DNA of 64,000 bases from Parcubacteria group bacterium (GCA_041659685.1 JBAZXV010000001.1:178771-242770), one strand, 5' to 3'. Shown: positions 6,414-62,146, counted from the stretch's first letter. Notes: a model not told the origin generated them from the letters alone. Numbers and translations are program-made.

Positions 6414-6468
6414 AATGGAGAATCTCCTTTCAAACCTTTATCAGGCGTCTTGGTTTTGGGCAGTCAGG

Positions 6469-6840
6469 TCAAGCGGCAGGTGGTCGGGGATCTTTGACCG
6501 ATACCACCAAACCTTCATGTTTGACGCACCAGCCCCGGCCGACATACAAGCCTGAGTAGCCAACAATGTAACGATCGCCTCCGGGCCAAAATTCGACTCG
6601 ATACTCGTTTTTACCCACTGCCTGTTTTACCAGGAATGGGATGTCCTCGGGAACATTTTCCCAGGGAATCGGCCTGCCGATCATGCGCCATTCAGCGAAC
6701 AGATAAGTCAGGGCAACGGCGCAAATAACTGCACTCAGCATAACGATAGCCATCTTATAACCTTCGACGATATAGCTATAGGTTATGGCGGAGACCACAC
6801 CGAAACTCATGAACGCCATCAATAACAATATTTTCTTCAT
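6469..6840 (-). CDS. Hypothetical membrane protein, with the start at MKKILLL
   Basis: Two predicted TM helices (MKKILLLMAFMSFGVVSAITY and AIVMLSAVICAVALTYLF). It sits in the GC-richer patch, and the upstream part of the ORF-track entry is probably non-coding. Confidence 0.4.
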   Translation of the reverse strand: MKKILLLMAFMSFGVVSAITYSYIVEGYKMAIVMLSAVICAVALTYLFAEWRMIGRPIPWENVPEDIPFLVKQAVGKNEYRVEFWPGGDRYIVGYSGLYVGRGWCVKHEGLVVSVKDPRPPAA

Positions 6841-7066
6841 AGTAGGATCCTTTTTAAAGTATATTTTCCCATTGCGTTGTTCCGCATACTGAGAATGTAT
6901 AATTACACTACTTTCAATGACAAAAGTCAAGCGTGAAGAACCCAACTCTAAAATTTACTTTAAGTATAGAAAAATACAGCCTCTGTTGGCTGTAAATTAA
7001 ATAATCAGCTTTGTATCGCGAAGAGATCTATATGATAATAAATGGCTTAATTAATGCTTCTTTGAC

Positions 7067-7104
7067 AGAGGGGCTAAGCCCCCAACTGGGGACTTAGCCC
7101 CTCT
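7067..7104 (-). terminator. Perfect 12-bp inverted repeat (agaggggctaag ... cttagcccctct) downstream of the amidohydrolase gene, a putative terminator or hairpin
   Basis: The stem-loop is seen directly in the sequence. There is no clear U-tract, so its function is uncertain. Confidence 0.35.
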
Positions 7105-11276: not shown

Positions 11277-11382
11277 AAATCAAGGGAAATAAAAACAACC
11301 CGGCAGACTGGTTGCTAGATCATTATACGATTAATTAATTTTACTAATCAGTTTCTATGCATATTGCTTAATTATCAATTTT

Positions 11383-23808: not shown

Positions 23809-23961
23809 TATTTCTTCCATTGAGGGATCGCTCCGCCAAACGGCGACGCTCCTTGAAACCTTGCGGTTTCAATTCTTCCACCACGGGAAAACTCACGTTT
23901 CCCCGACCCCTTTCCGCCCTTAATGTCAGGAAGCTATCGCTTTTTCCATTGAGGGGCGCGT
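23809..23961. repeat. Second copy of the conserved double-hairpin element, flanked by a 15-nt direct repeat (ccctcaatggaaRaa)
   Basis: The core at 23847-23915 (cgctccttgaaacc-ttgc-ggtttcaa...acgggaaaactcacgtttccccgacccctttcc) matches 11427-11496. Direct repeats ttccattgaggg lie at 23815-23826 and 23946-23957. It sits just 3' of rpsI. Confidence 0.5.
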
Positions 23962-37858: not shown

Positions 37859-39073
37859 TTATTCGTATCTCAATGCTTCGATAGGGTTTAAATTGGCCGC
37901 CCGCCGGGCTGGATAGAATCCAAAGACTATTCCGACTGCCGCCGAAACCCCGAAGGCAAGCAGGATTGAATACGTTGAAATCTGCGTATTTTGGCCGGCA
38001 AATTTGGTGACGGCAAGAGATGCGCCCCAACCGACTAAAATTCCGATTATTCCGCCCAAAAAGGTCAGGGCAACCGCTTCTGACAGAAATTGCAGATTAA
38101 TATAGGCTTTTCTGGTACCAACCGCTTTCCGAAGTCCGATTTCCCTCGTTCTCTCCGTCACATTCATTAGCATCATATTCATTATCCCGATCCCTCCGAC
38201 AAGAAGCGAGATTCCGGCAATAGAGGAAAGCAGAATGGTGAATGTATTTGTCACGCTTGTCGCTGTGGCAATAATATCATTTTGGTTCAAGATATTGAAG
38301 TCCGCCTGCGTCGCATCCGAGATTTTGTGCCTCACAAGGAGGAGATCGGAAATTTGCTGCTGCACCGAAGTCATCGACGATTGGTCCACTGCGGCAATGC
38401 TGATGTCTGAGAGATAATTATTCCCGGTAAGATAATGCTGGGCAGCCGTAATCGGAACATAAACATAGTCGTCCGGATTATTAAATCCTGACCCGCCTTT
38501 AGCTTGCGTCACGCCAACCACCTTGAAATCAACTCCCTTTATTTTTATGGATTGGCCGACCGGATTGGAATTTTCGCCAAAAAGATCATCCCTGGCAGTG
38601 GGACCCACAATAGCCGCTTTTGCCGAGCTTTTGATTTGTTGGTCGGAAAAAAATGAACCGATGTCCATCGTCACGTTTCGGGCTGTCAGATAATCAGCGA
38701 TGGTTCCAACCACTTCCGTGTTCGTATTATTGCCTTTCGCCGTCACCTGATATCTTCGCGAAGATTCCGGAGCCACCGCCTTTACGCTTTGAATTTGATC
38801 TTTGATTGCCTGGGCATCCTCAGTCGTAAGCGTTTGAGAACTGCCGGCACCTTGGCTTATCCCGCCGACTCTCTGGGCTCCGGGCATGACAATGATAAGA
38901 TTGGAGCCGATAGCCTCAATATTGCTTTCGATGGAGCTTTGGGCTCCCTGCCCTATCGCCACCATTGTGATGACGCTCGCTATGCCGATAACAATACCCA
39001 AAATTGTAAGTCCGGAGCGGGCTTTATTTTGAGTCAGGGCCCAAATTGTTTCCTCAATTAAATCTTTTATCAT
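37859..39073 (-). CDS. ABC transporter permease, FtsX/MacB family
   Basis: MacB-like N-terminal TM helix, a periplasmic domain, and a C-terminal FtsX triple-TM region. Confidence 0.8.
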   Translation of the reverse strand: MIKDLIEETIWALTQNKARSGLTILGIVIGIASVITMVAIGQGAQSSIESNIEAIGSNLIIVMPGAQRVGGISQGAGSSQTLTTEDAQAIKDQIQSVKAVAPESSRRYQVTAKGNNTNTEVVGTIADYLTARNVTMDIGSFFSDQQIKSSAKAAIVGPTARDDLFGENSNPVGQSIKIKGVDFKVVGVTQAKGGSGFNNPDDYVYVPITAAQHYLTGNNYLSDISIAAVDQSSMTSVQQQISDLLLVRHKISDATQADFNILNQNDIIATATSVTNTFTILLSSIAGISLLVGGIGIMNMMLMNVTERTREIGLRKAVGTRKAYINLQFLSEAVALTFLGGIIGILVGWGASLAVTKFAGQNTQISTYSILLAFGVSAAVGIVFGFYPARRAANLNPIEALRYE

Positions 39074-39130
39074 TTCTTCCTGCCCAGTTAAATGCCTCCG
39101 ACAAAGTCAAGGCAATTTCGCAAGGTGAAA

Positions 39131-39814
39131 CTATTTAACGGATTGAATGTCGCTTTCAATGAGGCCGTCACGGACAGAAATTATCCGGTCTGCGAAATCA
39201 GCCACCTCCATTTCGTGCGTAATAAGAACAATAGTATGGCCATTTTTGTTGAGTTTTTTGAAAGTATCCATGACTTTATGGCTGGTTTTTGTATCGAGAT
39301 TGCCTGTCGGTTCATCAGCCAAAATAATCGAGGGATTGTTTATAAGAGCCCGCGCAATAGCCACTCTTTGCATCTGCCCGCCGGAAAGCTGATTAGAGAG
39401 ATTAAAAAATTTTCCCTCCTCGAGTCCTGTTTGCTCCAATGCTTTTCTGGCTCTCTTCTCCCGTTCTTTATATGGCGTGCCCGTATAAAGCAGCGGCATC
39501 ATTACATTCCGAAGCACTGTTGTCCTGGGAAGAAGATTAAATGCCTGAAAAACGAAACCTATTTTATTTCGGCGCAGATCAGATAATTCATTATCCGAAA
39601 GCATGGAAACTTCTTTTCCGTCCAAAAAATATTCTCCGCTTGTCGGAGTGTCCAATGCCCCCAGCAAGTGCATAAGAGTGGATTTTCCGCTCCCGGAAGG
39701 TCCGATTATGGAAACAAATTCACCTTCCTTTATCCTGAATGAAACTTCCTTAAGAGCGGTTGTTTCCACATCGCCGTTAATATAAACCTTTTTAAGATTT
39801 TTACATTCTATCAT
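39131..39814 (-). CDS. ABC transporter ATP-binding protein (MacB/LolD-type)
   Basis: GPSGSGKST Walker A, LSGGQMQRVAIARAL signature, and ILADEPTGNLD Walker B. Confidence 0.85.
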   Translation of the reverse strand: MIECKNLKKVYINGDVETTALKEVSFRIKEGEFVSIIGPSGSGKSTLMHLLGALDTPTSGEYFLDGKEVSMLSDNELSDLRRNKIGFVFQAFNLLPRTTVLRNVMMPLLYTGTPYKEREKRARKALEQTGLEEGKFFNLSNQLSGGQMQRVAIARALINNPSIILADEPTGNLDTKTSHKVMDTFKKLNKNGHTIVLITHEMEVADFADRIISVRDGLIESDIQSVK

Positions 39815-39845
39815 AGTTTATGTTGAGCTTTTCGGAACGCAATAT

Positions 39846-41066
39846 TTAACGGCCGCCGCCGCCCAATCCGGGAATCCTAAGGGATGACGATCCTCCCCCT
39901 GCCCCGCTTGAAGAACTTGCGCTTGTCGCATTCAGGTTGATGGTTTGGGTGACAACTTTATCTCCCTCATTAATCCCGTTTGCAATTTCCGTGTCTGTTC
40001 CGTTTGAAATGCCGATTTCAACGTTTTTCCGCACCGGAGTCTGGCCGTCATTTAAGACTTCCACATATGTTAATCCGCCCTGGCTTTTTACAGCGCTTGC
40101 CGGCGTTATTAAAACATTTTGCTTGACGTCGGTGATTATAGAGGCTGAAACGCTCATTTCCGGCTTAATTCTTGAATCCAGTGAATCAATATTAATCGTG
40201 ACGTTATAAGTCACAACACCTTGATCGATAGTGCCCAGAGAGTCTATTTTTTCAACTGCTCCCGTTGTCTGAAGCCCGTCGACAGCGTCAAAACTTAGCG
40301 AAACTTTTTGCCCTTGAGACACATTCGCCACATCCACTTCGTTAACTTGCACTTGGGCTTTCATCGTTCCAAGATCACCGATGATAATCGGCGCCTGTGA
40401 AGTACTGCTTGAAGAGAGCCGGCTGAGATCATCACCGTTCTTTATGTTTACGGCGTTAACAGTTCCGTCGATCGTGGCCGTTACCTTTCTTTTGCCAGCC
40501 TCGGTCAGAGTGTTGCTGTAATCCGCCTGGGTGGCGGCGAGATTTTTTTCCGCCTGGGTGACTTTATCTTCAGCCGTATCAATCTTGTCCTTCATTACTT
40601 TCAATTGTTTGTCAGTGTAAGTCCCCGGAGTCTTTTCTTCTTTCTTTTTGTTGGCATTATAGTCGGCTTTAGCTGACTTCACATCCACTTTTGCTGATTC
40701 AACGGCGTCTTTGGATTGTTTTAGCGAGGCATTCGCTTTCGCAACGCTAACCGTCAAATCACCGTTGACAATATTAAAAAGAAATTGGCCTTTTTTCACT
40801 TGGTCCCCCACAGCCACCGCCAAATCGGCCACCGTCCCTGTGATTGTCGGATCGACTGTGGCGCTTTGGTCCACTATAATATTTCCGCTTGCAGAGATAG
40901 AGGAAGTAAGAGTACCTTTTTCGACAGCCTGAGTGGTATACTGCGCCTGGGTGGTCGTCGTTTTTGATTTTTTGTACCAGTAATAGCTTCCCCCGGCTAT
41001 TAACAGCACTATCGCAATCCAAACATACTTCCTCTTTTTTCCAAGCATGGAGTGTATTTTTGCCAT
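39846..41066 (-). CDS. Efflux periplasmic adaptor (membrane fusion protein, MacA/HlyD family)
   Basis: N-terminal TM anchor, a coiled-coil region, and beta-barrel/lipoyl segments. Start is placed at MAKIHSML. Confidence 0.7.
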   Translation of the reverse strand: MAKIHSMLGKKRKYVWIAIVLLIAGGSYYWYKKSKTTTTQAQYTTQAVEKGTLTSSISASGNIIVDQSATVDPTITGTVADLAVAVGDQVKKGQFLFNIVNGDLTVSVAKANASLKQSKDAVESAKVDVKSAKADYNANKKKEEKTPGTYTDKQLKVMKDKIDTAEDKVTQAEKNLAATQADYSNTLTEAGKRKVTATIDGTVNAVNIKNGDDLSRLSSSSTSQAPIIIGDLGTMKAQVQVNEVDVANVSQGQKVSLSFDAVDGLQTTGAVEKIDSLGTIDQGVVTYNVTINIDSLDSRIKPEMSVSASIITDVKQNVLITPASAVKSQGGLTYVEVLNDGQTPVRKNVEIGISNGTDTEIANGINEGDKVVTQTINLNATSASSSSGAGGGSSSLRIPGLGGGGR

Positions 41067-41067
41067 A

Positions 41068-41565
41068 TTAATTGTTTTCACTGCCGCTAAAAACTCGGAC
41101 CAGATCAGCATTCACCACGCCATTGTCTCCCGGGCTTCCCATAACTACGATTCGGTCATCCTTTTTAAGGTCGCCGATTTTAATGTCATCGCTTTGCCGC
41201 TTGATAATAGTTTTGTCCGTCACCGCAACAGTGTTTTCTTTTCCGTCTCTGTCCCTGACGATTATATTATTGTCTGAAATTGAAATAACTGCTCCGGCAA
41301 GCCCATGAGCATTTCTAAAATCCCGACTCTCCGGATCAAATGGCAGGCCGGGCCTCGCCTGCGGTCCCGGCGGAAAATCAGGCCTGATCCGGTGGGAACC
41401 GACAAAGTTTCGCTCGTAATTTTCGCCGAACTTATAGGAAAACCTGGCTTTTTTAAGACCAACCGCCACACCGCCGGCAAAACTGGCAAGGATTACCAAA
41501 AATACCCCTATAGCCAGAGCGGCCACTTTGATCATTTTTGATTTTGTCGCTTCTTGCGTATCCAT
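41068..41565 (-). CDS. Hypothetical membrane-anchored protein
   Basis: TM helix (VAALAIGVFLVILASFAGGVAVGL). Its stop overlaps the start of the adaptor gene by 4 nt. Confidence 0.4.
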   Translation of the reverse strand: MDTQEATKSKMIKVAALAIGVFLVILASFAGGVAVGLKKARFSYKFGENYERNFVGSHRIRPDFPPGPQARPGLPFDPESRDFRNAHGLAGAVISISDNNIIVRDRDGKENTVAVTDKTIIKRQSDDIKIGDLKKDDRIVVMGSPGDNGVVNADLVRVFSGSENN

Positions 41566-47815: not shown

Positions 47816-48874
47816 TTAATTATTTTCACCGGATTCCCCATATTGCTTTTCATAATATTTCATATATTCCCCGCTTTTAATTTTCCGCCACCAAGACTCG
47901 TTGGCTTTATACCATTCGACAGTTTTTTTCATTCCTTCGTCAAAATTTGTCCGCGGCTCCCATCCGAGTTCGTTTTTAATTTTCGTAAAATCAATCGCAT
48001 ATCTTCTGTCATGGCCGGGCCGGTCCTTTACGTATTCTATCATTTCCTCTCCCTTTCCGAGAAGATCCAGAATTTTTTTGGTAATTTCGATATTTGGCTT
48101 TTCCGAGTCGCCTCCGACACAATAGGTTTCTCCGATCTTCCCTTTGTGGATGATCAGGTCGATCGCCTCGCAATGATCCTCAACGAAAAGCCAGTCGCGA
48201 ACTTGCATCCCATCGCCATAGACAGGAAGCTTTTTTCCCTCAATCACATTCGTAATAAAAAGCCCGTGGAGTTTTTCGGGAAACTGGAATGGGCCGTAGT
48301 TATTCGAGCAATTGGAAATTGTGACTGGCAGGTTGTGGGTATGAAAATAGGCCATCACAAGATGATCAGCGGCAGCTTTTGAAGCGGAATAAGGGCTCCG
48401 CGGCGCAAAAGGGGTTTTTTCGTTGAAAAGCGGGTCATTCGGTCCCAAATGGCCGAAAACTTCGTCCGTCGAAACGTGATGAAATCTCTTCGGGCCGTTT
48501 GCTTTCGCGGCTTCCAGAAGATTATGCGTCCCGACGATATTGGTGCGGATAAACGCCGCGCTGTCGAGAATAGAGCGGTCTACGTGTGATTCCGCGGCAA
48601 AGTTAACAATAACATCAATGTCCTTAGCAAGATCATTAACCAAATCTTTATCCGCGATATCGCCTTTTACGAACTTATAATTCGGATTATTTTCGATATC
48701 TTTAAGATTTTCGAGATTTCCCGCGTAGGTTAAAAGATCAAGATTTACAATCTTGTAATCCGGATAATTCTTGAGCATGTAGCGGACAAAATTGGAACCG
48801 ATGAATCCGGCGCCGCCGGTGACAAGAAGTGAGAGTTGGGATTTGTGAGTTGGGATTTGTGAGTTATTTTTCAT
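47816..48874 (-). CDS. rmlB: dTDP-glucose 4,6-dehydratase (N-terminal extension contains a 14-nt tandem duplication)
   Basis: LLVTGGAGFIGSNFV and the YSASKAA active site. The N-terminus MKNNSQIPTHKSQLS is encoded by a cacaaatcccaact x2 repeat. Confidence 0.9.
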   Translation of the reverse strand: MKNNSQIPTHKSQLSLLVTGGAGFIGSNFVRYMLKNYPDYKIVNLDLLTYAGNLENLKDIENNPNYKFVKGDIADKDLVNDLAKDIDVIVNFAAESHVDRSILDSAAFIRTNIVGTHNLLEAAKANGPKRFHHVSTDEVFGHLGPNDPLFNEKTPFAPRSPYSASKAAADHLVMAYFHTHNLPVTISNCSNNYGPFQFPEKLHGLFITNVIEGKKLPVYGDGMQVRDWLFVEDHCEAIDLIIHKGKIGETYCVGGDSEKPNIEITKKILDLLGKGEEMIEYVKDRPGHDRRYAIDFTKIKNELGWEPRTNFDEGMKKTVEWYKANESWWRKIKSGEYMKYYEKQYGESGENN

Positions 48875-49217
48875 TATATTTGATTAATCCGCTTAGCATT
48901 TTCGCAATTTCTTCGCTTTGTTTATATAATTTATTGTAATCTTCTTTCGAAATATAACCTTGCATTAATGCTAAATCTAATAAACTAACGACTTCATACA
49001 ATGATCCCTTAGCGATATTGAATAAATTTCTGCTTTCTTTATTACTAATTCTGCCACTCGCTTCAGCTATATTAGCAATTACTGAAATTGCAGCTCTTAT
49101 AATTTGACTAATTAACGAAAATTTCAAATGTGGTGGAAACTTTTCTGATATTTTGAAAATTTCGCCATTAAACACTAAGGCTTTTTTGTAAACGTCCAGT
49201 CTCTCGAATTTATACAT
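48864..49217 (-). CDS. Four-helix-bundle protein (23S rRNA intervening-sequence protein family)
   Basis: 117 aa with the conserved IAEASGR and GSLYEV motifs of the family. It is inserted between rmlC and rmlB and overlaps the rmlB start by 11 nt. Confidence 0.65.
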   Translation of the reverse strand: MYKFERLDVYKKALVFNGEIFKISEKFPPHLKFSLISQIIRAAISVIANIAEASGRISNKESRNLFNIAKGSLYEVVSLLDLALMQGYISKEDYNKLYKQSEEIAKMLSGLIKYNEK

Positions 49218-52710: not shown

Positions 52711-54000
52711 CTAGCAAACAGACCGAAAAATGTCAATTATATCGCGATTATATTTTTCTGGGTTGAATTTTTCAGCCGGAAACTCAAAATTCGGCTTATT
52801 TCCCGATGCATATGCCATTATTTTGTCCTTAAATTCCTTTTGATTATTCGCCAGATAACCGTTTTGGCCATTTTCTATTATTTCGTCGTATCCTCCGGTT
52901 TTATAACCGACAAAGGGCTTTCCTGCGCTGATCGCTTCAAGTGCAATCAGTCCAAAAGTTTCCGGAAGCCGTGAAGCGGAAACAACGAAAACCGATTCCT
53001 GAATCAATTTATTTAACTCGATATTATTTTTAAAACCGGCATATTCCGTATTTGCGCAAAGCGGAATGTCGAAGCCGCTCTCTTTACTGCCTGCTAGAAC
53101 TAATTTTATCGGCATATCCCTGAAAATCTCGGTCAACTCATCGATATTTTTTTCTTTAGAGATGCGGCCGAAATAGAGAGCGAATTTTTCCCCGCCCGCG
53201 GCTGGCGCGGAATGCGCATTCCGGATATTCGCGAAATGAGGCAGAACTTTAATTTTGCCTTCGGAAAAGCCCGCCTGGACAAGAATATTTCTTACAAACC
53301 GGCTCGGAGCGATGAACAAATCGACATTTTTTTCATAAATGCCGAGCCAACGATGAAAATAAATTCCTAAAACGCTTATTAAGCTTTTAAGATAAGAATT
53401 TTTCACGCATTTTTTCGGAACGCAGTGCCAGTATTTTCCAGCGACGCACTTTTCGCAATAAGGCTTTTCGTCCGCCTTTGCAGAAAAATATTGTTTTTCT
53501 GCGGATTTTTCAGACCCTGAAATTATGTTCTGCTCCGGCGAATGTTCGCCGCAACGGTTCTTTTGCGGTTTATCCCCTGCAACTTCGCAGTTTAAAAGAT
53601 AATTCGGACAAATTAGCTTCCAGTCATGGACAGTCATAACAATCGGAATTCCTCGTTTTTTTATTTCAGGAAGAATTGAGGGGGAAATTTGATGGTAAAT
53701 ATTATGAATATGGACGACATCCGGCCGAAATTCATCCAGAATTTTTGCAATTTTTCGCCTGGCTTCAAATGACCAAAAAATGCGGAGTCCGCCTTTGATT
53801 TTATTTATCGCGCCGCCGTTTTCATAGTCCACCCGGCTGACAAAATGATTTGAAAAATCCGAATGCAGATTTTTCGGATGGCTCATTGAAAAAACAGCGG
53901 CTTCATTTCCGTTTGAATTCAGCAGCTTCACGAGATCGACAAAATGCTTGTCGGCTCCGCCTCGGACATGGTTGAATTTATTGATTTCAAGGATTTTCAT
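52711..54000 (-). CDS. Glycosyltransferase family 4 with a Cys-rich insertion
   Basis: MKILEINKFNHVRGGADKHFVDL N-terminus, a C-terminal GT4 fold, and a CxxC...CxxC insert. Confidence 0.7.
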   Translation of the reverse strand: MKILEINKFNHVRGGADKHFVDLVKLLNSNGNEAAVFSMSHPKNLHSDFSNHFVSRVDYENGGAINKIKGGLRIFWSFEARRKIAKILDEFRPDVVHIHNIYHQISPSILPEIKKRGIPIVMTVHDWKLICPNYLLNCEVAGDKPQKNRCGEHSPEQNIISGSEKSAEKQYFSAKADEKPYCEKCVAGKYWHCVPKKCVKNSYLKSLISVLGIYFHRWLGIYEKNVDLFIAPSRFVRNILVQAGFSEGKIKVLPHFANIRNAHSAPAAGGEKFALYFGRISKEKNIDELTEIFRDMPIKLVLAGSKESGFDIPLCANTEYAGFKNNIELNKLIQESVFVVSASRLPETFGLIALEAISAGKPFVGYKTGGYDEIIENGQNGYLANNQKEFKDKIMAYASGNKPNFEFPAEKFNPEKYNRDIIDIFRSVC

Positions 54001-55523
54001 TTGTTTTCTTTTGTGTGAATATTTTTGTTTATTTCTTCCGGATAGCCTCCCAGAACAGCCAGTCCTCCAAGGATAATCCAAAAGAATACTGCCAGAAGAT
54101 TCGTTTCAAGATAGGTTTGAAATAAAAAGGCGATCAGATAATTTATAAACAATACTACAAAAACCACTTGAAAAAATTTTATCTCAGCGTTTCCCGCCGG
54201 CCCTTTTCTAGGCTTTCTGATATTGGAATAGAGCGGCCTGAATATTGAATAAAATATCGCGGTTATGAGGGCAATGCTCCAAATTCCCATTTGGATAAAC
54301 ATCGTGAGAAGGGAATTATGGATATTTCGCACTTCAATAAAATCTTTGTATTTCAGCCCAATCTCAACGGAAACCATTTTTCCGTAGCCCAATCCAAAAA
54401 TCAGCGAATGCTGAAAGTCCGTCCAGGCCGCCTCCCAAACGGATTTGCGCCAATTGAGGCTTTCATCGGAACTGACTTGCGCCGTGGAAACAAATCTTTG
54501 TCCGGCCACTCCGGCCGCTCCCCTGAAAACTTTGGAAACTCCGGATTGGGGGAAGATAAAGGATATGTAGGCGGCCAGAATAAACAGCACGGCCCCGAAA
54601 AAAGCGTAATGAAGAAGCATGGTCTTTAAGGTCTTGCTGTTTTTTTGAGGAAGAAGATAAAAAAGAAATAAGACGGAAATAAAAAGGCTTATCCAAAGAT
54701 GGCGCATGAGAGACCCGATAATGCCCGCGGTCCAGATTGGAATAAGGGCATATAAAAATTTATTGACTTTTGATTTTTTAAAACTCAGCCAGACAAAAGA
54801 GGCCAGCAAAGCCATTGAGAAATAAAAAGCGTGCGGAAAAGCCAAAATTCTTGTCCCCGGAGTGGAAAGAGGGGTAAATTCCGTCCAAAGGCCTTCGCCG
54901 CGGATAATCCCTATGAAAATGAAAATGGATGCGGCGGATGCGGCGGCCAAAAAAAACTTAAGGAGCTGAAAAATTTTTTCTCTTTCACTGAACAGGAAAA
55001 TAAAGGCAAAATAGAAAAGTCCGTAGAAAGAATAATTCTTGAATGTGCTGAAAGCGATGGCTTCGTCGGCGTGAAGAAAAAAAGCGCTCGCGAGAAAATA
55101 AACCGCGCTCGCGAGAATGAAGATTGCAATCAAATAGTCAACAATTTTCAGTTTCCTCGGCAAGCCGTTTTTTATGATCTGATAAATCGTTCCCAGCATC
55201 ACGCCGGCAAACAGGATGTCAATGGGGTATATTTTATATTCCGTCCGGTTCCAATATATCGGAACCAAAGTGAAAAATCTTTCGAAAATCACGGTCAGAA
55301 AAACAATGGCATAAAATCCGCTTCTTGGAAAAACAATCGAAAGCGCAAAACCGGCAGCCATTGCAAAAAAATAGATCGGGAAATTGAACCCGGCAACAAA
55401 ATTAGCCAGAATAAAAAGCGAAACCGCCGCAATAATGAAAACAGCGGTGGAGGTTTCTATGAATTCGCTTTTAGCGATTTTGACTGAAATAGTTCGCATA
55501 ATGTTGGGTATATTTTTTCGCAA
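53997..55523 (-). CDS. O-antigen ligase/polymerase-like multi-pass membrane protein
   Basis: More than 10 predicted TM helices and a Wzy_C-like region. It sits in the glycan locus. Confidence 0.55.
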   Translation of the reverse strand: MRKNIPNIMRTISVKIAKSEFIETSTAVFIIAAVSLFILANFVAGFNFPIYFFAMAAGFALSIVFPRSGFYAIVFLTVIFERFFTLVPIYWNRTEYKIYPIDILFAGVMLGTIYQIIKNGLPRKLKIVDYLIAIFILASAVYFLASAFFLHADEAIAFSTFKNYSFYGLFYFAFIFLFSEREKIFQLLKFFLAAASAASIFIFIGIIRGEGLWTEFTPLSTPGTRILAFPHAFYFSMALLASFVWLSFKKSKVNKFLYALIPIWTAGIIGSLMRHLWISLFISVLFLFYLLPQKNSKTLKTMLLHYAFFGAVLFILAAYISFIFPQSGVSKVFRGAAGVAGQRFVSTAQVSSDESLNWRKSVWEAAWTDFQHSLIFGLGYGKMVSVEIGLKYKDFIEVRNIHNSLLTMFIQMGIWSIALITAIFYSIFRPLYSNIRKPRKGPAGNAEIKFFQVVFVVLFINYLIAFLFQTYLETNLLAVFFWIILGGLAVLGGYPEEINKNIHTKENK

Positions 55524-55630
55524 TTGATAATTTTCAGAATTTTATGGAAACAAGCGGTGCTTTTTATTTCCATGAAACTCTGCCTCTCCCGCGGCATTGC
55601 TGCAGGAGAGGAGGCCTAAGGTACATTGGG

Positions 55631-56083
55631 TTATTTGCGCTTACGCCCGAATGGATCAGGCGTGACTTTCCAGGCGGTGACGAAGAACTCCTGGGCAGCA
55701 TAATCCCCTGTGACGGGACTGATGACGCCAACCTGGATCTTGGCCCATTTCACGGCACCGAAATCAAACTTGAGGATGTAGGTGTTGCCACCCGCATACT
55801 CAACCTTGCCGTCTTTCCAGTCGCCGTCGATATTATAGCGGGCGACCACGAAATCCCAATGGACCCGACGATCAAACTCGATCGCCATGCGGTAGCAAGT
55901 AATCCCGGAAACTGGCCCTGGTTCATTGTCTGGCCAGAGACCCTTCACAGTCCCCATAATTTGCCATCTGGGCATATCGTCCACGTATCTCACCCAGCTA
56001 AAGTCGGCCGCTTGACTACAGACTGCCCCGGCCAGCAAGAGAGCAAACCACACAAACAAGCAGACTATGCATTTTTTAAACAT
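55631..56083 (-). CDS. Hypothetical secreted protein, possibly a lipoprotein, in the GC-rich island
   Basis: Signal peptide LLLAGAVCSQA and high GC. Confidence 0.4.
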   Translation of the reverse strand: MFKKCIVCLFVWFALLLAGAVCSQAADFSWVRYVDDMPRWQIMGTVKGLWPDNEPGPVSGITCYRMAIEFDRRVHWDFVVARYNIDGDWKDGKVEYAGGNTYILKFDFGAVKWAKIQVGVISPVTGDYAAQEFFVTAWKVTPDPFGRKRK

Positions 56084-56101
56084 AACTCACAACCTCGCAG
56101 T

Positions 56102-56614
56102 TTATTGAATTTCAATATTGATGTTGCCGCCGCCGTTTTCCATGGTGACAGCTATGCCATACATCCCAAAGGCCAAGTCTGAGTTGGTTCCCCAGTATTT
56201 CATGACCTTTTCAGGCCAAAAGGAGAAGAGAAACATTCTCTCGACATCCAGAGCATCGTTGACATTCGCTCCCCGAGCAGATGCCACATAAACAAGAGAT
56301 GTTTTGATGAGGTCTTTAGCCGCCTTTTGATCCGGTGGCATCGAGGCAAAGAGGGACTTTATTTTCTTCCCCGTTTCATCCGCGGTCATAATGACCGTGA
56401 TCCTGCCGCCAATGGTCATTTTCTGAAAAGACCGCGATTCCGAATACCAGTGTCCGCTGGTGAATTCGAAACCCTGCTCTAAAAAGGATCCGGTCGCCAG
56501 AATCGCCGAATGGGTCAAGCTGCCGACTTTTTCTTCACTGGCATTGGAAATATTCGCCAGGCAGAAAGTCGCGATGAGGACCATAATAGAAATTAAAAGA
56601 GCCGATTTTTTCAT
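56102..56614 (-). CDS. Hypothetical secreted protein in the GC-rich island
   Basis: Signal peptide MKKSALLISIMVLIATFCLA. Confidence 0.4.
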   Translation of the reverse strand: MKKSALLISIMVLIATFCLANISNASEEKVGSLTHSAILATGSFLEQGFEFTSGHWYSESRSFQKMTIGGRITVIMTADETGKKIKSLFASMPPDQKAAKDLIKTSLVYVASARGANVNDALDVERMFLFSFWPEKVMKYWGTNSDLAFGMYGIAVTMENGGGNINIEIQ

Positions 56615-57042
56615 GGTTTACCTCTTCATTTAGAATATTCGGGAAAGATAGGCTTATCTCCCGAAAGATGCGCTTAAGGAAGCGAATTTTTCGAAAGATT
56701 AACTTTGTCCTCCTTTGCAGAACGCTATAAACGTAAACCCGCGAGTAGATGATAATGTTCTGCTTCGGCAGATTTCGCTCCGCCGAAGAATTAGAGAATG
56801 ACTTAGGAGCCAGTTCGCGGAGCTTCATTTTTTAACTCAATATAATATCATTTCGCCGCAAATTTGTCAAGTATTATTTTAGCTTATATAAGGCATTATT
56901 TTCTAATTTAGCATATATTTAATAAATTATCTATAATCTATCTCATGGATTTGCTTTAAGCAATAGGATCTTTCTCCAAAAACTTGCCATTCCTGGGCGT
57001 ATGGTTATAATGGGATATTAAAAAACAAAAGGAGGGCGAGGG

Positions 57043-57510
57043 ATGAAAAAATTTCATCTTTTGGTTTTTTTTCTTGTTCTTTTCAGCGCTTCCGCTCTCC
57101 GCTCCGAAACATCGGAAGAATTTTGGAGAGGGAAAGTAATTTTCGTCAACCAGTTGACCCAGGAGCTGATTACCTATCAGGACGGCAAAGAATTGCGCCG
57201 ATTCGATGTGATTATGGGAGACGCAAAATTCAAGACTCCGCAAGGAATTTACCGCGTGCAACACAAGGACCGGAAATATTGGTCCAATCAATACAGCACC
57301 TGGATGCCCAATTCTCTTTTTTTCATCTGGGACGAAAAAACCCGGATGGCCATCCACGCCGGTATTGTTCCGCTGAACAAGGAAATTACCCGCCAAAAAG
57401 CCACCCATGGATGCGTGCACGCGAGAAACAATGATGCGGAGTGGCTGTTCGACTGGGCGGAAGAAAAAGCAACCAAAATCATAATCTACGGGGATCGTTC
57501 CCAAGACTGA
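57043..57510 (+). CDS. L,D-transpeptidase (YkuD domain), secreted
   Basis: Signal peptide and the catalytic HAG...ATHGCVHA motif. The overlapping minus-strand ORF 56956..57504 is rejected. Confidence 0.7.
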   Translation: MKKFHLLVFFLVLFSASALRSETSEEFWRGKVIFVNQLTQELITYQDGKELRRFDVIMGDAKFKTPQGIYRVQHKDRKYWSNQYSTWMPNSLFFIWDEKTRMAIHAGIVPLNKEITRQKATHGCVHARNNDAEWLFDWAEEKATKIIIYGDRSQD

Positions 57511-57547
57511 CAGTCCTGATGTTGCATCAGGACTGTTTCATTTTTTC
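57511..57547 (+). terminator. Rho-independent terminator after the L,D-transpeptidase gene
   Basis: cagtcctgatg-ttg-catcaggactg followed by a T-rich run. Confidence 0.6.
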
Positions 57548-57818
57548 TCCTATTTTAATTTGTATCAGTAAACTAGTTTACTGGTTTGAAAAACCTAGAC
57601 ATCCGATGTCTTTTGACTTATGAATATTTATTCAGAAACTTTTTATAAGAAATAATTATTTTCGGTATCCTCAAGCGTTTGGACATCCAATGTCCAAAAT
57701 AGACAATTTTTCCAAATTAAAGAGCCGTATCAGTACTGACACGGCTCAATTTTTTCTTTGCCCCCTTTGTTACCTCCTTATGGGGGCGGTTATTTCGTGG
57801 CCGGGGTCCGGCCGGGGA

Positions 57819-58301
57819 TTACTTAACGTTCAGCGACGGTGGCCAGGGGTTGCCGTTGGGATCTAGTCCCCGGTCCTTGTCGGCATAGAGACCACCCTCC
57901 AGTTTGTAGACATATTGACCAGAGTTGACTGCGCCCAGGGATTCTACCGGAATCAACAGCCAGTATTTCCCGTGCTTAAACTGGATGCCGGTGTAAGAAC
58001 CCATATCAACCTTTTCGCCAGTCTTGACACTCCGGTTGGGCCCAAACAAGACCACCTCGGAGGGCTGCCAGCCTTGAGAATTCTTCACCGCGAAAGAAAT
58101 ACTGTTGCCTTCCTTGACGGCCGTAAATACGGTGCCCGCGGGCGGCAGAAACGTTTTGGACTTCGCGGTGTCAACCACGATTTTGACGTTACCTTGGGCC
58201 AAAGCCGTGGTCGTCATAAAGAACATGGAGGCGCAGAGCAGGACGCTCATGAAAACTCCGATACCCAAAATCTGCCACTCGGTTTTCCTTAATTTATTCA
58301 T
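57819..58301 (-). CDS. Hypothetical secreted protein
   Basis: GAGGAG Shine-Dalgarno sequence before the ATG at 58301, and a signal peptide MNKLRKTEWQILGIGVFMSVLLCASMFF. The upstream part of the ORF-track entry is probably not coding. Confidence 0.4.
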   Translation of the reverse strand: MNKLRKTEWQILGIGVFMSVLLCASMFFMTTTALAQGNVKIVVDTAKSKTFLPPAGTVFTAVKEGNSISFAVKNSQGWQPSEVVLFGPNRSVKTGEKVDMGSYTGIQFKHGKYWLLIPVESLGAVNSGQYVYKLEGGLYADKDRGLDPNGNPWPPSLNVK

Positions 58302-58395
58302 TACCGATCTCCTCTCAGTGTATTCCCCGCTAATGCAGGGAAGTTGTGTTCCGCGCCATTGGTTTTCACCTTTAGCGCGGAACGGGTTCATTGGG

Positions 58396-60963
58396 TCAGT
58401 CCTGATCAGGTCCCGCTTGTCTGACATCCTTTTTTTCAGGAACCGCAACAGGATTCTGTGGCTTTTCCAGAAACTGGGGCGGAGCGGACGACTCTGCCTT
58501 GGGTGTTTCCGGAGTTATTGGTTGTTCCGGCTTAACTTCTGCCGGAGTTTGAGGCGGCATAGCAGGCGGTTCCGCCGGCTTGGCCTCTGGTTTTTCCGGA
58601 ATTGATGGAATAATTATTTTTCCGTCCGGAACCTCAGGCAGAACAGGCTGTTCCACCTTGGGCGCATCCGGAACCGGCGTCGGAGCCTGGGCAGGTTGCT
58701 CAGGCTTGTCCGGAGTGATTGGTTGCTCCGGCTTGGTTTCTTGCGGAGCCGGGATTGGTAGCGCCGGAACCTTGATCGGCGTTTCCGGCTTGACTGCCGG
58801 ACACCGCTCCCTCAACTTCTTTTTACGTTTCGGCGGTTTTTTTACTTTTACCGGCGGAGCTTTTTCAACTGCGGGAGGACAGATAATTTTCGGCTCAGCC
58901 GGAATTATCGGTGCTGGAGGTAAAACCGCAGGAACAATCGGCTCAATTTCCGGCGTGTCCCAAGGAACTTCTTTGGTCCCGCATTCCACCATCGCGCCCT
59001 GGATGGTCCAAAATACGCGATAAAAATCGACAGAATCCAGATAGTAGTTTCTTTTCCCAAAATATCGGCCGTAGGAGAGGTATACTCCCCCAACTTCGAC
59101 CTGCACTTTGCCTCCGCCGCCCTTGGGGCCATGGCGGAAACGCAGAAAGGCCGGGCCCGCCGATATTTTGAACAGGTCATCGCACGGCGATTGATACAGG
59201 ACCGGCATAATACCGGCATGGAAAAACCCGTCCGTCTCCCAGAGCAGGAAGGCCTTCGCTCCCGGGAGCAGCTTGCCATATTTTCCGCTCTTCACCGGCT
59301 TCCACCAAAATTCCGTGGCGGCGTCAACCGTTGCATAGCGGCGGGACATCCGATAGTTAAAATCCCCTTTTTCCCAGCGTCGGCCCGCAAGAAGGCCAAT
59401 CGTCGTATCCGTCCCGCCCCAATCATGGCGGGTGATAATCTCCGGCCAAATGCCGAATGAACGGCTACAGCCTGATCCGGAGAATTCGGACGGGTGAACT
59501 TGATACTCATACCACCCGAACTTTGCCGCAGGTCCGACTCCCAAAAATACGTTGGGCGCCAATTCTGCTTCGAACGGCCGCAAAGCGATATTATGCCATG
59601 CAAACCGTCCCGAGAGATTCGGCTCACGGCTGATTCCACCTCCAATCGGTATTTCTACCCGTTTCGGATCGACCCACCAACGAATGCGCTGAGGAAGATC
59701 GATGTAGTCATTGAAGGTTTGACCTTGGCCTTTGACATCGGCAACAAACTGCCGATAGGGAATCTCACCGCCGATGTTGGCATTGTTTTCCCGGACATAC
59801 GACTGTCCATAACTTTTTTCGCTCTTCGCCGGGTTTGGATAGGCGCCGACTTTTTCATCTTTCCGGAAGGATTGCCAGAAAGCAAAATCCTTCTCGAAAA
59901 GCTCTACGCCATTTGTCTCGGTAGAGAGGCAAGGCGTGTTGTGATTGCGCAGAACGGTGGATGTAAATAATGCTGATCCAGCGCTCATTGCCATCCCAAT
60001 CGGCTCAGGACTGATTGTCAGCCCCCCATCATCGGCAAAGCGAACATAGCCACGGCGCCGGTCGGGTTTTTTGCAGGCCTCGACTAATTCGCCACGATCT
60101 GCCGCATAGCGGATCCCGTCCATCGGGACATAATACTTATTAAGGCCGGCAGCCCGAATAACTCCATCGAGCTGGCCTTTGTTGATGAGGCTCGTTCTCT
60201 GGAGACTATCAAGGCTCGTGCCATAGGTCTCGGCAACCAGAGCCATATACTCAGGATCTTTTTCTTCATACATTCCGCCCTGAAGTTTGGCATACTTGGT
60301 GCCTTCCAACCCCCAAACAACCAACTCACCACGTTTGTCTCCGCCAATGGCATTGTTGAAAAAACGGTCGCCACTGACAATTTTCCAATCGGAGGCAGAA
60401 CCAGTGAGTTCGGAGTTGAAATAGACTACGACCGGAAGCTTGCCATTCTTGTCGCTGCCGGACGGCAGAATAAAACCGTCCTCAATCCGACCAGAGCCGG
60501 AATTGACGGCCACCGCCTTCATGGTCTTTCCCTTAGCAAATTTAAGCGCAGGTGTGGGGATAAAACCTCTCACGGCAGTGACTTTTTTGGAGTCTTGCGG
60601 AGGTTTTTTGGTTGACCATGAATCACGAGGGGTGCAGAAGGGGGATTTCCATAATTTCCCATCTTCCCTATCCCCGTTCTCCGGGTTTTCCCACTTGTTG
60701 GGTTTGCGGGCCGTGTAAAACTGCCCGCTCTCCTGGTTCAGCCTTTCCTGGTAGATTTGGCCGTCACGAGAATTCTTCCACTCGCGGACCACACCGGGAT
60801 CGGCTTTTTCGGCGGAAGCGGCTTCTGAAACCTCTCCTCCGCTGCCGGAGCACTTATACCATCCCGGTTCGGAACCGGGAATTGGGTCTGCAGCTTTTGC
60901 TTGGCCGCTGGCAAAAACCAGCGAAAGGCCGAGCAGAGCAGCGATAAAAGACTTTCTGACCAT
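58396..60963 (-). CDS. Large secreted protein (855 aa) with a C-terminal Pro-rich repeat region
   Basis: Signal peptide MVRKSFIAALLGLSLVFASGQAKA and PExPxxP-type low complexity in the last about 150 aa. GC-rich. Confidence 0.5.
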   Translation of the reverse strand: MVRKSFIAALLGLSLVFASGQAKAADPIPGSEPGWYKCSGSGGEVSEAASAEKADPGVVREWKNSRDGQIYQERLNQESGQFYTARKPNKWENPENGDREDGKLWKSPFCTPRDSWSTKKPPQDSKKVTAVRGFIPTPALKFAKGKTMKAVAVNSGSGRIEDGFILPSGSDKNGKLPVVVYFNSELTGSASDWKIVSGDRFFNNAIGGDKRGELVVWGLEGTKYAKLQGGMYEEKDPEYMALVAETYGTSLDSLQRTSLINKGQLDGVIRAAGLNKYYVPMDGIRYAADRGELVEACKKPDRRRGYVRFADDGGLTISPEPIGMAMSAGSALFTSTVLRNHNTPCLSTETNGVELFEKDFAFWQSFRKDEKVGAYPNPAKSEKSYGQSYVRENNANIGGEIPYRQFVADVKGQGQTFNDYIDLPQRIRWWVDPKRVEIPIGGGISREPNLSGRFAWHNIALRPFEAELAPNVFLGVGPAAKFGWYEYQVHPSEFSGSGCSRSFGIWPEIITRHDWGGTDTTIGLLAGRRWEKGDFNYRMSRRYATVDAATEFWWKPVKSGKYGKLLPGAKAFLLWETDGFFHAGIMPVLYQSPCDDLFKISAGPAFLRFRHGPKGGGGKVQVEVGGVYLSYGRYFGKRNYYLDSVDFYRVFWTIQGAMVECGTKEVPWDTPEIEPIVPAVLPPAPIIPAEPKIICPPAVEKAPPVKVKKPPKRKKKLRERCPAVKPETPIKVPALPIPAPQETKPEQPITPDKPEQPAQAPTPVPDAPKVEQPVLPEVPDGKIIIPSIPEKPEAKPAEPPAMPPQTPAEVKPEQPITPETPKAESSAPPQFLEKPQNPVAVPEKKDVRQAGPDQD

Positions 60964-61037
60964 GGTCTTACACTCCTTTGCCTCGCTTCCCTTTCGTTTC
61001 TTCCTAAGCCAGACTCGGCGCGAATTTTTTTCATTTA

Positions 61038-61102
61038 ACCCGGGGAACTTAACCCGGACATTAAACGAAGAAAATTCAGTTTTTATGACCCGGGGAACTT
61101 AA
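61038..61102. repeat. 15-nt direct repeat acccggggaacttaa x2 (61038-61052 and 61088-61102) at the GC-island boundary
   Basis: Seen directly in the sequence. Confidence 0.4.
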
Positions 61103-61340
61103 TCACCCAGAATGAAACACCATAAGAACTTTGCTTTTGTCTTGCTTTTGGAAAATCCGGAGGAGTCGCAAGAAATTTTTGTGGGACAGCCGCCAGGCGG
61201 CTGCCATATATTGACTTTATACTGACAAAGTTGTAAATGAGCTGGCCCTCGTTTTCAAGGGTTGAGTGTCCCAAAGCCGCGGCTTTGAAAAACTCAGCCT
61301 CCGAAAAGATGGTTTTCAAGCCATCACGTTAAAGGCAAAA

Positions 61341-61371
61341 GTGGAATTCGCAGCTAAACCGCAAATTCCAC
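61341..61371 (-). terminator. Hairpin (gtggaatt ... aattccac) 3' of the Wzz/YveK-like gene
   Basis: 8-bp perfect stem with a 15-nt loop. Confidence 0.35.
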
Positions 61372-61411
61372 CTGCCTTTCAGTGTGTTGCTCTTAAGGTT
61401 CAACTTGAAAT

Positions 61412-62146
61412 TTACGTTTCTTTGAAATTGACTATCTCTCCCGTTTCTACGTCGATAATGTTTCCGGAATCGTCTTTCGTTATCGTTCTTCCCCAAATGC
61501 CGTTTATATCTTTTCCGCTGCCCGCTAGTTTCCCCTGACTAACAAGGCCTGCATAAAATGAAATTGCAAATATAAGGAAAAGTCCCACAAGAAATGATGC
61601 GCCGACCGAAAACGCCAGCATTGCGGCTCCCGGATTATTCTTTATCACCGGCGCGTTAATCATCCGCACTTCAATTTTTTGGTTTTCGCTGATAAAAAGA
61701 TTATTATTGTCCGCCAAAACTCCGGCCACTGTTTTTGAGATATTTTCTGCGTTCGTTCGATCACTCGCCAAGACCCTGAGGTGACTCATCCCCAGCTCCA
61801 TATTAAGCGATGTCCGAACCGTTTTTGCCCAGGATTTCATCCTGCTCTCCCGATCAATGGGCAAAATTTTAGAAAGTTCCGGATAACCTTCCGCAGCCTT
61901 ATTAAGAAAAGTTTCCGTGTAGATGCTTTCCGAAAGAAGCTTCGAAAAATGTTCGGTCGACTTCGCCAGAGTATAGGAATCAACGAATCCTTCCTGGTTT
62001 TGAATGACCAGCACGTCCAAATTGGACTGATATTTGGGAGTAAAAAGCATCATCCCCCAAAAAGTCACGGCCGCAAAAAGAAGGCCTGCCAATATCATGA
62101 TTCCTGATTTTTGCCTTAAAATAGCGGCAATTTGAGAATAATTCAT
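61412..62146 (-). CDS. Wzz/YveK-like polysaccharide chain-length determinant
   Basis: N-terminal TM helix, then PKYQSNLDVLVIQNQ, and a C-terminal second TM (AMLAFSVGASFLVGLFLIFAISF). Confidence 0.55.
   Translation of the reverse strand: MNYSQIAAILRQKSGIMILAGLLFAAVTFWGMMLFTPKYQSNLDVLVIQNQEGFVDSYTLAKSTEHFSKLLSESIYTETFLNKAAEGYPELSKILPIDRESRMKSWAKTVRTSLNMELGMSHLRVLASDRTNAENISKTVAGVLADNNNLFISENQKIEVRMINAPVIKNNPGAAMLAFSVGASFLVGLFLIFAISFYAGLVSQGKLAGSGKDINGIWGRTITKDDSGNIIDVETGEIVNFKET

Follow-up and report, generated by a model that had tools for sequence, protein, structure and literature searches.

In C. difficile, the surface-layer (S-layer) cassette slpA-secA2-cwp66 occurs as 13 S-layer cassette (SLC) types that recombine (Dingle et al. 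2013, as cited in PMC6254364). In Geobacillus and Paenibacillus, the slg clusters carry sgsE beside wsaA-F, wzm/wzt, the Wzy_C-type O-oligosaccharyltransferase (O-OTase) WsaB and rmlACBD (PMC2943079). Here we describe a locus from a Parcubacteria group bacterium that shares features with both. It lies in a 64,000-nt stretch of DNA (GCA_041659685.1, JBAZXV010000001.1:178771-242770), called the window below and numbered from its first letter, in which positions 55,530-61,100 had been singled out as a GC-rich island encoding secreted proteins (the original prediction). The largest gene of this region, BIG, codes for an 855-aa orphan secreted protein. We consider it likely that a small Parcubacteria/Moraniibacteriota clade shares a conserved cell-envelope glycan locus, and that this region forms the hypervariable centre of that locus and holds a swappable cassette.

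By analogy, the closest precedent for such a recombining, serotype-like cassette is that of C. difficile. As judged from sequence comparison, the two have in common discrete and deeply diverged types that occupy a fixed chromosomal position and are exchanged by homologous recombination, a type that is independent of the genomic background, and linkage to a glycosylation locus with rhamnose genes. They differ in that BIG belongs to an unrelated family without CWB2 or SLH anchoring domains, that the window cassette is markedly GC-richer than the genome, and that strains of one species are compared in C. difficile whereas here we deal with an uncultivated clade whose backbones are ~60-88% identical. 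The slg clusters resemble the window locus in placing a gene for a structural surface protein, with its own transcript, beside glycosyltransferases, a Wzy_C-family protein and rml genes. In contrast to the slg clusters, no ABC transporter or initiating transferase was identified adjoining the window cassette, and glycosylation remains putative; in addition, the variable parts of slg clusters are GC-poorer than their genomes, whereas the window cassette is GC-richer.

We compared the window with seven related loci from independent assemblies (L001, L003, L004, L008, L011, L013 and L015), recovered via BIG homologues and via scans with the flanking Wzz-like gene; two further contigs were compared as gene maps only. 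The order in the eight loci is DUF4012, Wzz-like, BIG, a small secreted gene, where present a YkuD gene on the opposite strand and up to two further small secreted genes, then Wzy_C, GT4, TIG, GT4 and rml genes (rmlCBDA). Both gene-map contigs agree with this order. Named sources of the related loci are Parcubacteria or Moraniibacteriota metagenome-assembled genomes (MAGs), and the loci found via the Wzz-like gene are named likewise. Identity of backbone proteins across loci is mostly 60-88%, the exceptions being TIG (down to 46%) and the divergent YkuD of L004 (42-50%). The Wzz-like protein is 64-69% identical to its orthologues in the seven loci and the Wzy_C protein 59-71% to its own. Since the slot between them is occupied in eight loci with backbones this far apart, its position goes back to the ancestor of the clade. 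The window and L004 align colinearly over both borders of the island (72-75% nucleotide identity), from Wzz through the leader and BIG to Wzy.

Within this conserved frame, BIG falls into at least seven classes at a 55% threshold, with 26-39% identity between classes and 60-82% within them. The window and L004 form one class (75%), L001, L008 and L013 another (60-68%) and L003 and L015 a third (82%), while L011 stands alone and further classes are found among database proteins. These classes do not follow the flanking genes. By their backbones, L004, L001, L003 and L015 cluster tightly (76-88% identity in DUF4012 and Wzz), yet this clade carries three BIG classes; L004 shares 78-87% identity with the other three in DUF4012 and Wzz and groups with them by backbone, but its BIG matches that of the window. 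Nucleotide alignment of L004 with L001 holds at ~80% identity until 52 nt past the Wzz stop codon, after which the two are essentially unalignable until Wzy, except for a 77-nt intergenic patch and a 135-nt patch encoding the conserved polybasic block at the 3' end of BIG. L003 and L001 differ across BIG only and have the small gene in common. The small genes belong to at least four unrelated secreted types that assort independently of BIG class, and the slot between YkuD and Wzy holds different orphan genes (ORFans) in different loci. Altogether, BIG classes are incongruent with their flanks, and homology breaks at the 3' end of Wzz and again at either the 3' end of BIG or the start of Wzy, which indicates replacement by homologous recombination. 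The sequence comparison thus supports well that the cassette is replaced through recombination in its conserved flanks, as in S-layer and O-antigen serotype switching. Of the horizontal acquisition proposed in the original prediction, what stands is that related lineages have repeatedly exchanged deeply diverged alleles; there is no sign of a foreign donor.

Hypervariation by a diversity-generating retroelement (DGR) was considered and rejected, as no pair of repeats resembling a template repeat and a variable repeat (TR/VR) was found in the window. The only DGR-related feature there is a gene of the 23S_rRNA_IVP / bAvd-like four-helix-bundle family (48864-49217, minus strand; 117 aa, GC 0.285). 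It is inserted between the rmlC-like and rmlB-like genes and is not at that position in L001 and L003.

The reported shift in base composition was confirmed. GC is 0.498 in 55,530-61,100 and 0.427 across the remaining window (window mean ~43%). Sliding-window analysis places the strongest 3-kb outlier of the 64 kb at 58,001-61,000 (GC 0.536), compared with 0.428 ± 0.014 and a maximum of 0.462 for 3-kb windows outside the flagged stretch, and the same segment is also the strongest outlier in tetranucleotide distance (z = 5.1). Elevated GC therefore stands, but not a single uniform 5.5-kb island: high GC is confined to two blocks, 55,600-56,600 and 57,750-61,050 (the core of the anomaly, GC 0.535), with AT-rich spacers (GC 0.33-0.40) between them and a YkuD gene that is nearly backbone-like and only mildly elevated (GC 0.466). 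The YkuD protein is 70-77% identical to its orthologues in L001, L003 and L015, where the GC of the gene is 0.45-0.48, and by these sequence measures it behaves as conserved backbone and not as variable cargo. The other four genes of the stretch have a GC of 0.47-0.54 and a GC at third codon positions (GC3) of 0.55-0.67, against 0.432 ± 0.030 and 0.464 ± 0.032 in 55 background open reading frames (ORFs). From their amino-acid composition and background codon usage, a GC3 of only 0.47-0.50 is expected for these four, so codon usage deviates, and the lack of deviation that would have spoken against an island was not observed; GC3 z-scores are 2.7-5.3, and GC is elevated at codon positions 1 and 2 too.

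The same composition recurs in the related loci. BIG and the small gene are GC-rich in all eight, with a GC3 of 0.57-0.71 compared with 0.44-0.57 in their own backbones. In every locus, AGR makes up less of the Arg codons in the cassette (0.11-0.29) than in the backbone (0.29-0.41), and GGA less of the Gly codons (0.11-0.27 against 0.36-0.56). The cassettes share one codon dialect with fewer A-ending codons; tetranucleotide correlation between cassettes of different loci is 0.81, while that between a cassette and its own backbone is only 0.43. The spacer between BIG and the small gene has a GC of 0.41-0.54, against 0.15-0.42 for most backbone spacers. We rejected codon bias linked to host expression as an explanation of the high GC, because the codon shift of the cassette shows no correlation, or a slight anticorrelation, with the shift in ribosomal-protein and rpoA genes of the window (r = -0.20); those genes favour AGA, and the cassette favours CGT and CGC. 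A codon shift so unlike theirs makes the composition look regional rather than a host translational adaptation. The GC-richness would reflect a cassette that belongs to a horizontally circulating pool. Its proposed origin is either recombination-associated GC-biased conversion or a higher-GC reservoir (for example, L013-like genomes), and selection is a third candidate for what keeps the allele classes GC-rich. It is rare for a variable surface cassette to exceed its host genomes in GC consistently, through allele classes of great age, and this one offers a natural test bed for recombination-associated GC bias versus selection.

The codon dialect could also be accommodated by a vertically inherited, highly expressed S-layer-like operon that owes its GC to translational or mRNA-stability selection and evolves fast without exchange, which we regard as rather unlikely. 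The dialect is consistent in all allele classes, in that it avoids ATA, AGA, AGG, GGA and other A-ending codons while CGT rises; the operon has its own terminators and a long structured leader with a hairpin pair; and within a class BIG identity is about that of the flanks. S-layer mRNAs are known for long structured leaders. However, the codon shift does not follow that of the ribosomal-protein and rpoA genes, and GC is raised in a non-coding spacer and at the first two codon positions. Moreover, three BIG classes coexist in one tight backbone clade and the small-gene types reassort, a pattern that pure vertical descent cannot give.

We favor exchange of the cassette, which would be a two-gene operon for a large Sec-exported orphan protein and a small secreted partner. 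It would adjoin a conserved YkuD L,D-transpeptidase and up to two further small secreted ORFans. The claim that the cargo is surface or cell-wall related is supported. From its signal peptide and genomic context, BIG may be a major envelope protein that is exposed and diversifies under pressure from phage or from a host or partner; the surrounding locus may glycosylate it or make the product to which it is anchored. Envelopes of the candidate phyla radiation (CPR)/Patescibacteria are almost uncharacterised, and their surface is where these cells contact hosts and phages; the locus would provide a concrete serotype-like switching locus in uncultivated Parcubacteria.

BIG had no match in Pfam or PHROG, and searching PDB sequences with the family profile gave nothing but noise. 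Its sequence is identical to a hypothetical protein in a Parcubacteria group bacterium MAG. A sequence search found 7 relatives among 5.8 billion proteins, and a profile 12 among 1.84 billion representatives; those with names are Parcubacteria or Moraniibacteriota. The predicted mature N-terminus of BIG reads A-D-P-I-P-G-x-E-x-G-W-Y-x-C, with P29, G30, E32, G34, W35, Y36 and C38 invariant in the alignment. Its A-(D/E)-P-I-P-G block is the best-conserved N-terminal block and is present in most family members; predicted cleavage between AKA and ADPIPG would leave an Ala-Asp N-terminus. Between the N-terminal block and the predicted barrel described next lies a variable region of ~400 aa. Residues 440-672, modelled with 10 diverse homologues, form an all-beta meander (predicted local distance difference test (pLDDT) 83.6, predicted template modelling score (pTM) 0.75), and from this model BIG is predicted to contain a 12-stranded beta-barrel of the outer-membrane type. 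The barrel domain is the most conserved part of BIG across allele classes. Its invariant residues are mostly glycines, and its strands alternate between hydrophobic and polar residues, clearly in the C-terminal half and more weakly in the N-terminal half. The barrel and a helix are followed by a 193-residue tail rich in Pro (28%), Lys, Glu and Ala; the description of the whole protein as Pro-rich applies to its last 184 residues (28% Pro) but not to the rest (6%). Within the tail lies the polybasic block PPVKVKKPPKRKKKLRERCP, whose DNA, unlike the rest of BIG, can be aligned between loci of different type.

The barrels of type V autotransporters (BrkA, Hbp, AIDA-I, NalP, EspP) differ from that of BIG in several respects. 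BIG has no similarity to the Pfam autotransporter beta-domain family (PF03797) or to outer-membrane-protein families; autotransporters carry the barrel at the very C-terminus after a pore-filling helical linker, whereas that of BIG (residues 440-646) is followed by the helix and a Pro/Lys-rich tail of ~190 aa; and the organism is thought to lack an outer membrane and beta-barrel assembly (BAM) machinery.

Another comparison concerns barrels that are tethered to the wall. In Hyphomicrobiales, YkuD enzymes tether beta-barrel proteins to peptidoglycan via an N-terminal Ala-Asp (PMC12729407), and L,D-transpeptidase-tethered barrels are reported for Brucella, Agrobacterium and Coxiella (Godessart 2021 and Sandoz 2021, as given in PMC12729407). 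BIG resembles these proteins in its predicted mature N-terminus (Ala-Asp or Ala-Glu) and in having a secreted YkuD protein with an intact HGC motif encoded next door; this catalytic motif aligns with PDB 5bmq. The likeness is only positional and at the level of motifs, the proteobacterial systems tether a true outer membrane, and YkuD is absent at the locus in some relatives. Peptidoglycan tethering of BIG by the neighboring L,D-transpeptidase, via N-terminal Ala-Asp, may be taken as a lead, not as a result. As possible attachment sites, a mature Ala-Asp or Gly-Gly N-terminus and a C-terminal Lys were considered. Some L,D-transpeptidase substrates are attached through a Lys near their terminus (PMC12729407).

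The extreme C-terminus of BIG also varies. Most homologues (among L004, L015, P0003-P0006 and P0013) end in P-[K/N]-x-M, as in PPKTM, LPKAM, VPNAM, PPKVM, IPKPM, FPKAM and KKVM. The window protein ends in GPDQD (58396-58420), and its Pro-rich tail is ~90 residues longer than those of the homologues.

A bolder proposal is possible but doubtful: that the main variable envelope protein of this presumed-monoderm clade is a genuine 12-stranded beta-barrel of the outer-membrane type, tethered by an L,D-transpeptidase via Ala-Asp or the Lys-rich tail, and that the cassette pool is GC-rich through biased gene conversion at a switching hotspot. If the tethered barrel were real, it would imply either an unrecognised outer lipid-containing layer in CPR cells or a barrel deployed into the membrane of a partner. 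An undescribed protein family with a predicted outer-membrane-type barrel bears on the question of whether CPR bacteria are monoderm or diderm.

Several points weigh against the picture of a swapped cassette for an exposed barrel protein. All loci are metagenome assemblies, and where variable glycan and S-layer regions are known, their GC is usually below that of the genome (PMC2943079). YkuD is missing at the locus in L008, L013 and the P0002 contig, so that a functional link is not obligatory in cis. The full-length BIG model is too poor to use (pLDDT 40), also for the N-terminal region. The barrel prediction rests on a 10-sequence alignment, a hydrophobic outer face is clear for the C-terminal strands only, and scanning 10 barrel domains against Pfam (E up to 10) gave noise only, with no outer-membrane-protein family. 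As Patescibacteria are regarded as having no outer membrane (PMC12102498, PMC8871954), there is no obvious membrane to hold the barrel, and its prediction is unexpected. We found no earlier description of outer-membrane-type barrels in Patescibacteria in the literature, and saw no outer membrane or BAM machinery genes within the 64-kb window, which is part of the genome only.

One way out would be a barrel protein that acts away from the cell, as an exported effector inserted as a pore or anchor into the membrane of a host or partner, with its variability tracking host range. Such a role would fit a predicted 12-stranded barrel of the outer-membrane type whose lineage supposedly lacks an outer membrane (PMC12102498), and likewise the extreme lineage restriction of the family and its discrete allele classes, which are typical of interaction interfaces. 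Against it, the gene has a peptidoglycan enzyme as its neighbor and belongs to a glycan locus for the cell's own wall, and the Pro/Lys-rich tail resembles a wall-spanning tether. We also know of no outer-membrane barrel that enters a foreign membrane without BAM machinery. On balance, we would be surprised if BIG were an effector of this kind.

The suggestion of a recent genomic island from a higher-GC foreign donor has been largely refuted, and we consider it very unlikely. It accounts for the strong deviation in GC, GC3, tetranucleotides and Arg codons, for GC elevation that reaches an internal spacer, and for a codon dialect unlike that of host ribosomal genes. Yet no empty slot was found: the slot is filled in 8/8 loci and in both gene maps, at a position ancestral to the clade. 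Taxonomic affinity pointed to no other taxon, as BIG relatives are confined to this clade and the 150-aa and 160-aa proteins are singletons with only self-matches among 5.8 billion proteins (the 170-aa protein was not in this large-database search). The borders have no integrase, tRNA or att-like flanking repeat, the only tRNAs lying at 11.5 kb, and the PHROG search returned no matches and hence no phage-family relatives. An assembly chimera of two organisms, for which only the abrupt composition change speaks, can practically be dismissed: the architecture and both junctions recur in seven independently assembled loci and two gene maps from different samples and pipelines (JGI, Logan, NCBI MAGs), the colinearity with L004 spans both junctions, and the same order in independent assemblies rules out a chimera as well as a recent insertion. 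A sharp compositional island alone therefore indicates neither recent foreign DNA nor misassembly.

The original prediction had also noted a 15-nt direct repeat at the end of the island. We confirmed exactly two copies of ACCCGGGGAACTTAA in the window, at 61,038 and 61,088, 50 nt apart, where chance would give ~0.13 matches; two copies arose in 1 of 100 shuffles. Both copies lie upstream of the 855-aa gene, within its leader, and the repeat therefore does not bracket the island. In six of the eight loci the Wzz-to-BIG spacer (220-448 nt) contains two copies of a 15-30-nt unit; L008 has three. Paired units are ~50 nt apart and ~70-140 nt upstream of the BIG start codon. They are locus-specific, with a long shared core that is identical between the copies of one locus; between L003 and L015 the units differ by one base, which is changed in both copies. 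Most units hold a short inverted repeat, CCGGG-N8-CCCGG in the window. Single units fold into hairpins, though only marginally better than shuffles (z -0.4 to -4.0), and an RNA structure is a candidate only; the last 297 nt of the leader fold better than shuffles (z = -3.7; 0/200 shuffles equal). Rfam gave no match in the region at E up to 1, and at gathering thresholds only tRNAs in the window and five related loci. The paired units could be paired operators or 5'-untranslated region (5'-UTR) hairpins. The terminator-like hairpin after the Wzz-like gene implies a separate transcription start for BIG; a sigma-70-like promoter was sought for it and none was found.

Features of the region are collected in Table 1. 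Where six genes had been reported, all with signal peptides, we find five plausible ones, a count matched by NCBI locus tags WC831_01205 to WC831_01225, and no further credible ORF in the gaps between them. A signal-peptide-like N-terminus (basic n-region, hydrophobic core, small residues at -3/-1) can be read from the sequence of all five. Terminator-like hairpins bound three units, namely Wzz, BIG with the small gene, and YkuD; the 160-aa gene is probably co-transcribed with BIG.

Table 1. Features of the cassette and its flanks, in window positions
Feature	Position	Strand	Evidence or remark
Wzz-like (chain-length-determinant-like) gene, conserved left flank	61412..62146	-	weak Pfam Wzz match, E 8e-4, below gathering cut-off
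Terminator-like hairpin 3' of Wzz-like gene	61339..61373	-	16-bp stem, then T run
Leader and promoter region of BIG, 448 nt	60964..61411	-	blocks common to L004, L003 and L015
Direct repeat copy 1, ACCCGGGGAACTTAA	61038..61052	.	sense strand: part of CCGGG...CCCGG hairpin unit
Direct repeat copy 2	61088..61102	.	same 15-mer
BIG, 855-aa orphan secreted protein, WC831_01225	58396..60963	-	GC 0.538, GC3 0.55
BIG signal peptide (residues 1-24) and conserved predicted mature N-terminus	60850..60963	-	alignment
BIG predicted 12-stranded beta-barrel domain, residues 440-646	59026..59646	-	predicted model
BIG helix (residues 647-662), then Pro/Lys/Glu/Ala-rich tail	58399..59025	-	28% Pro
Conserved polybasic block PPVKVKKPPKRKKKLRERCP (PPVKVKK..KKKLR.RC)	58798-58857	-	BIG tail alignment
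160-aa secreted ORFan, WC831_01220	57819..58301	-	GC3 0.67; slot 3' of BIG
Terminator-like hairpin closing the BIG-small gene operon	57722..57747	-	hairpin
Terminator of YkuD gene	57509-57537	+	hairpin
Minimal secreted YkuD L,D-transpeptidase	57043..57510	+	Pfam YkuD, E 1.5e-20
170-aa secreted protein, second variable slot	56102..56614	-	no Pfam or PHROG match
150-aa secreted ORFan	55631..56083	-	GC3 0.64; self-match only
Wzy_C (O-antigen ligase / O-oligosaccharyltransferase family) membrane protein, conserved right flank	53997..55523	-	Pfam Wzy_C

The 170-aa protein is 42% identical to p169 of L004, and its counterpart is missing from the other loci; the 150-aa protein has no counterpart in the related loci. 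NCBI annotates only 85 aa for the latter (WC831_01205). The 150-aa reading adds a typical signal peptide, with a Shine-Dalgarno-like GAGG located 12-15 nt upstream. In the AT-rich spacer of 428 nt between YkuD and the 170-aa gene, two divergent, near-consensus sigma-70-like sites (56842-57011), each with 11/12 matches, face YkuD and, at 56870-56842, the 170-aa gene.

Upstream of DUF4012, several related loci have a second GC-rich stretch (0.55-0.72 per 100 nt), at ~6200-6900 in L001, 7113-7736 in L004, ~7800-8300 in L013 and ~7400-8400 in L015; it is absent in L003 and L008, and its equivalent in the window would fall beyond 64000. The stretch has no conserved ORF, Rfam match or sequence alignable between loci, and may be another variable slot. 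It adjoins, in L004, a low-GC (0.34) gene at 6424-7089 with a weak match to an IS200-like Y1 transposase, below the Pfam cut-off. MacA/MacB-like ABC efflux genes lie directly upstream of DUF4012 in L001, L003, L004, L008, L013 and L015. In the window they lie at 37859-41111, across the locus and ~21 kb off, pointing to a rearrangement.

Farther away in the window, a 69-nt direct repeat (88% identical) occurs at 11427-11495 and 23847-23915, downstream of a tRNA pair and of rpsI, respectively. A 37-nt repeat (92% identical; 11380-11416 and 11491-11527) overlaps the 3' end of tRNA-Tyr and looks like a partial tRNA duplication.

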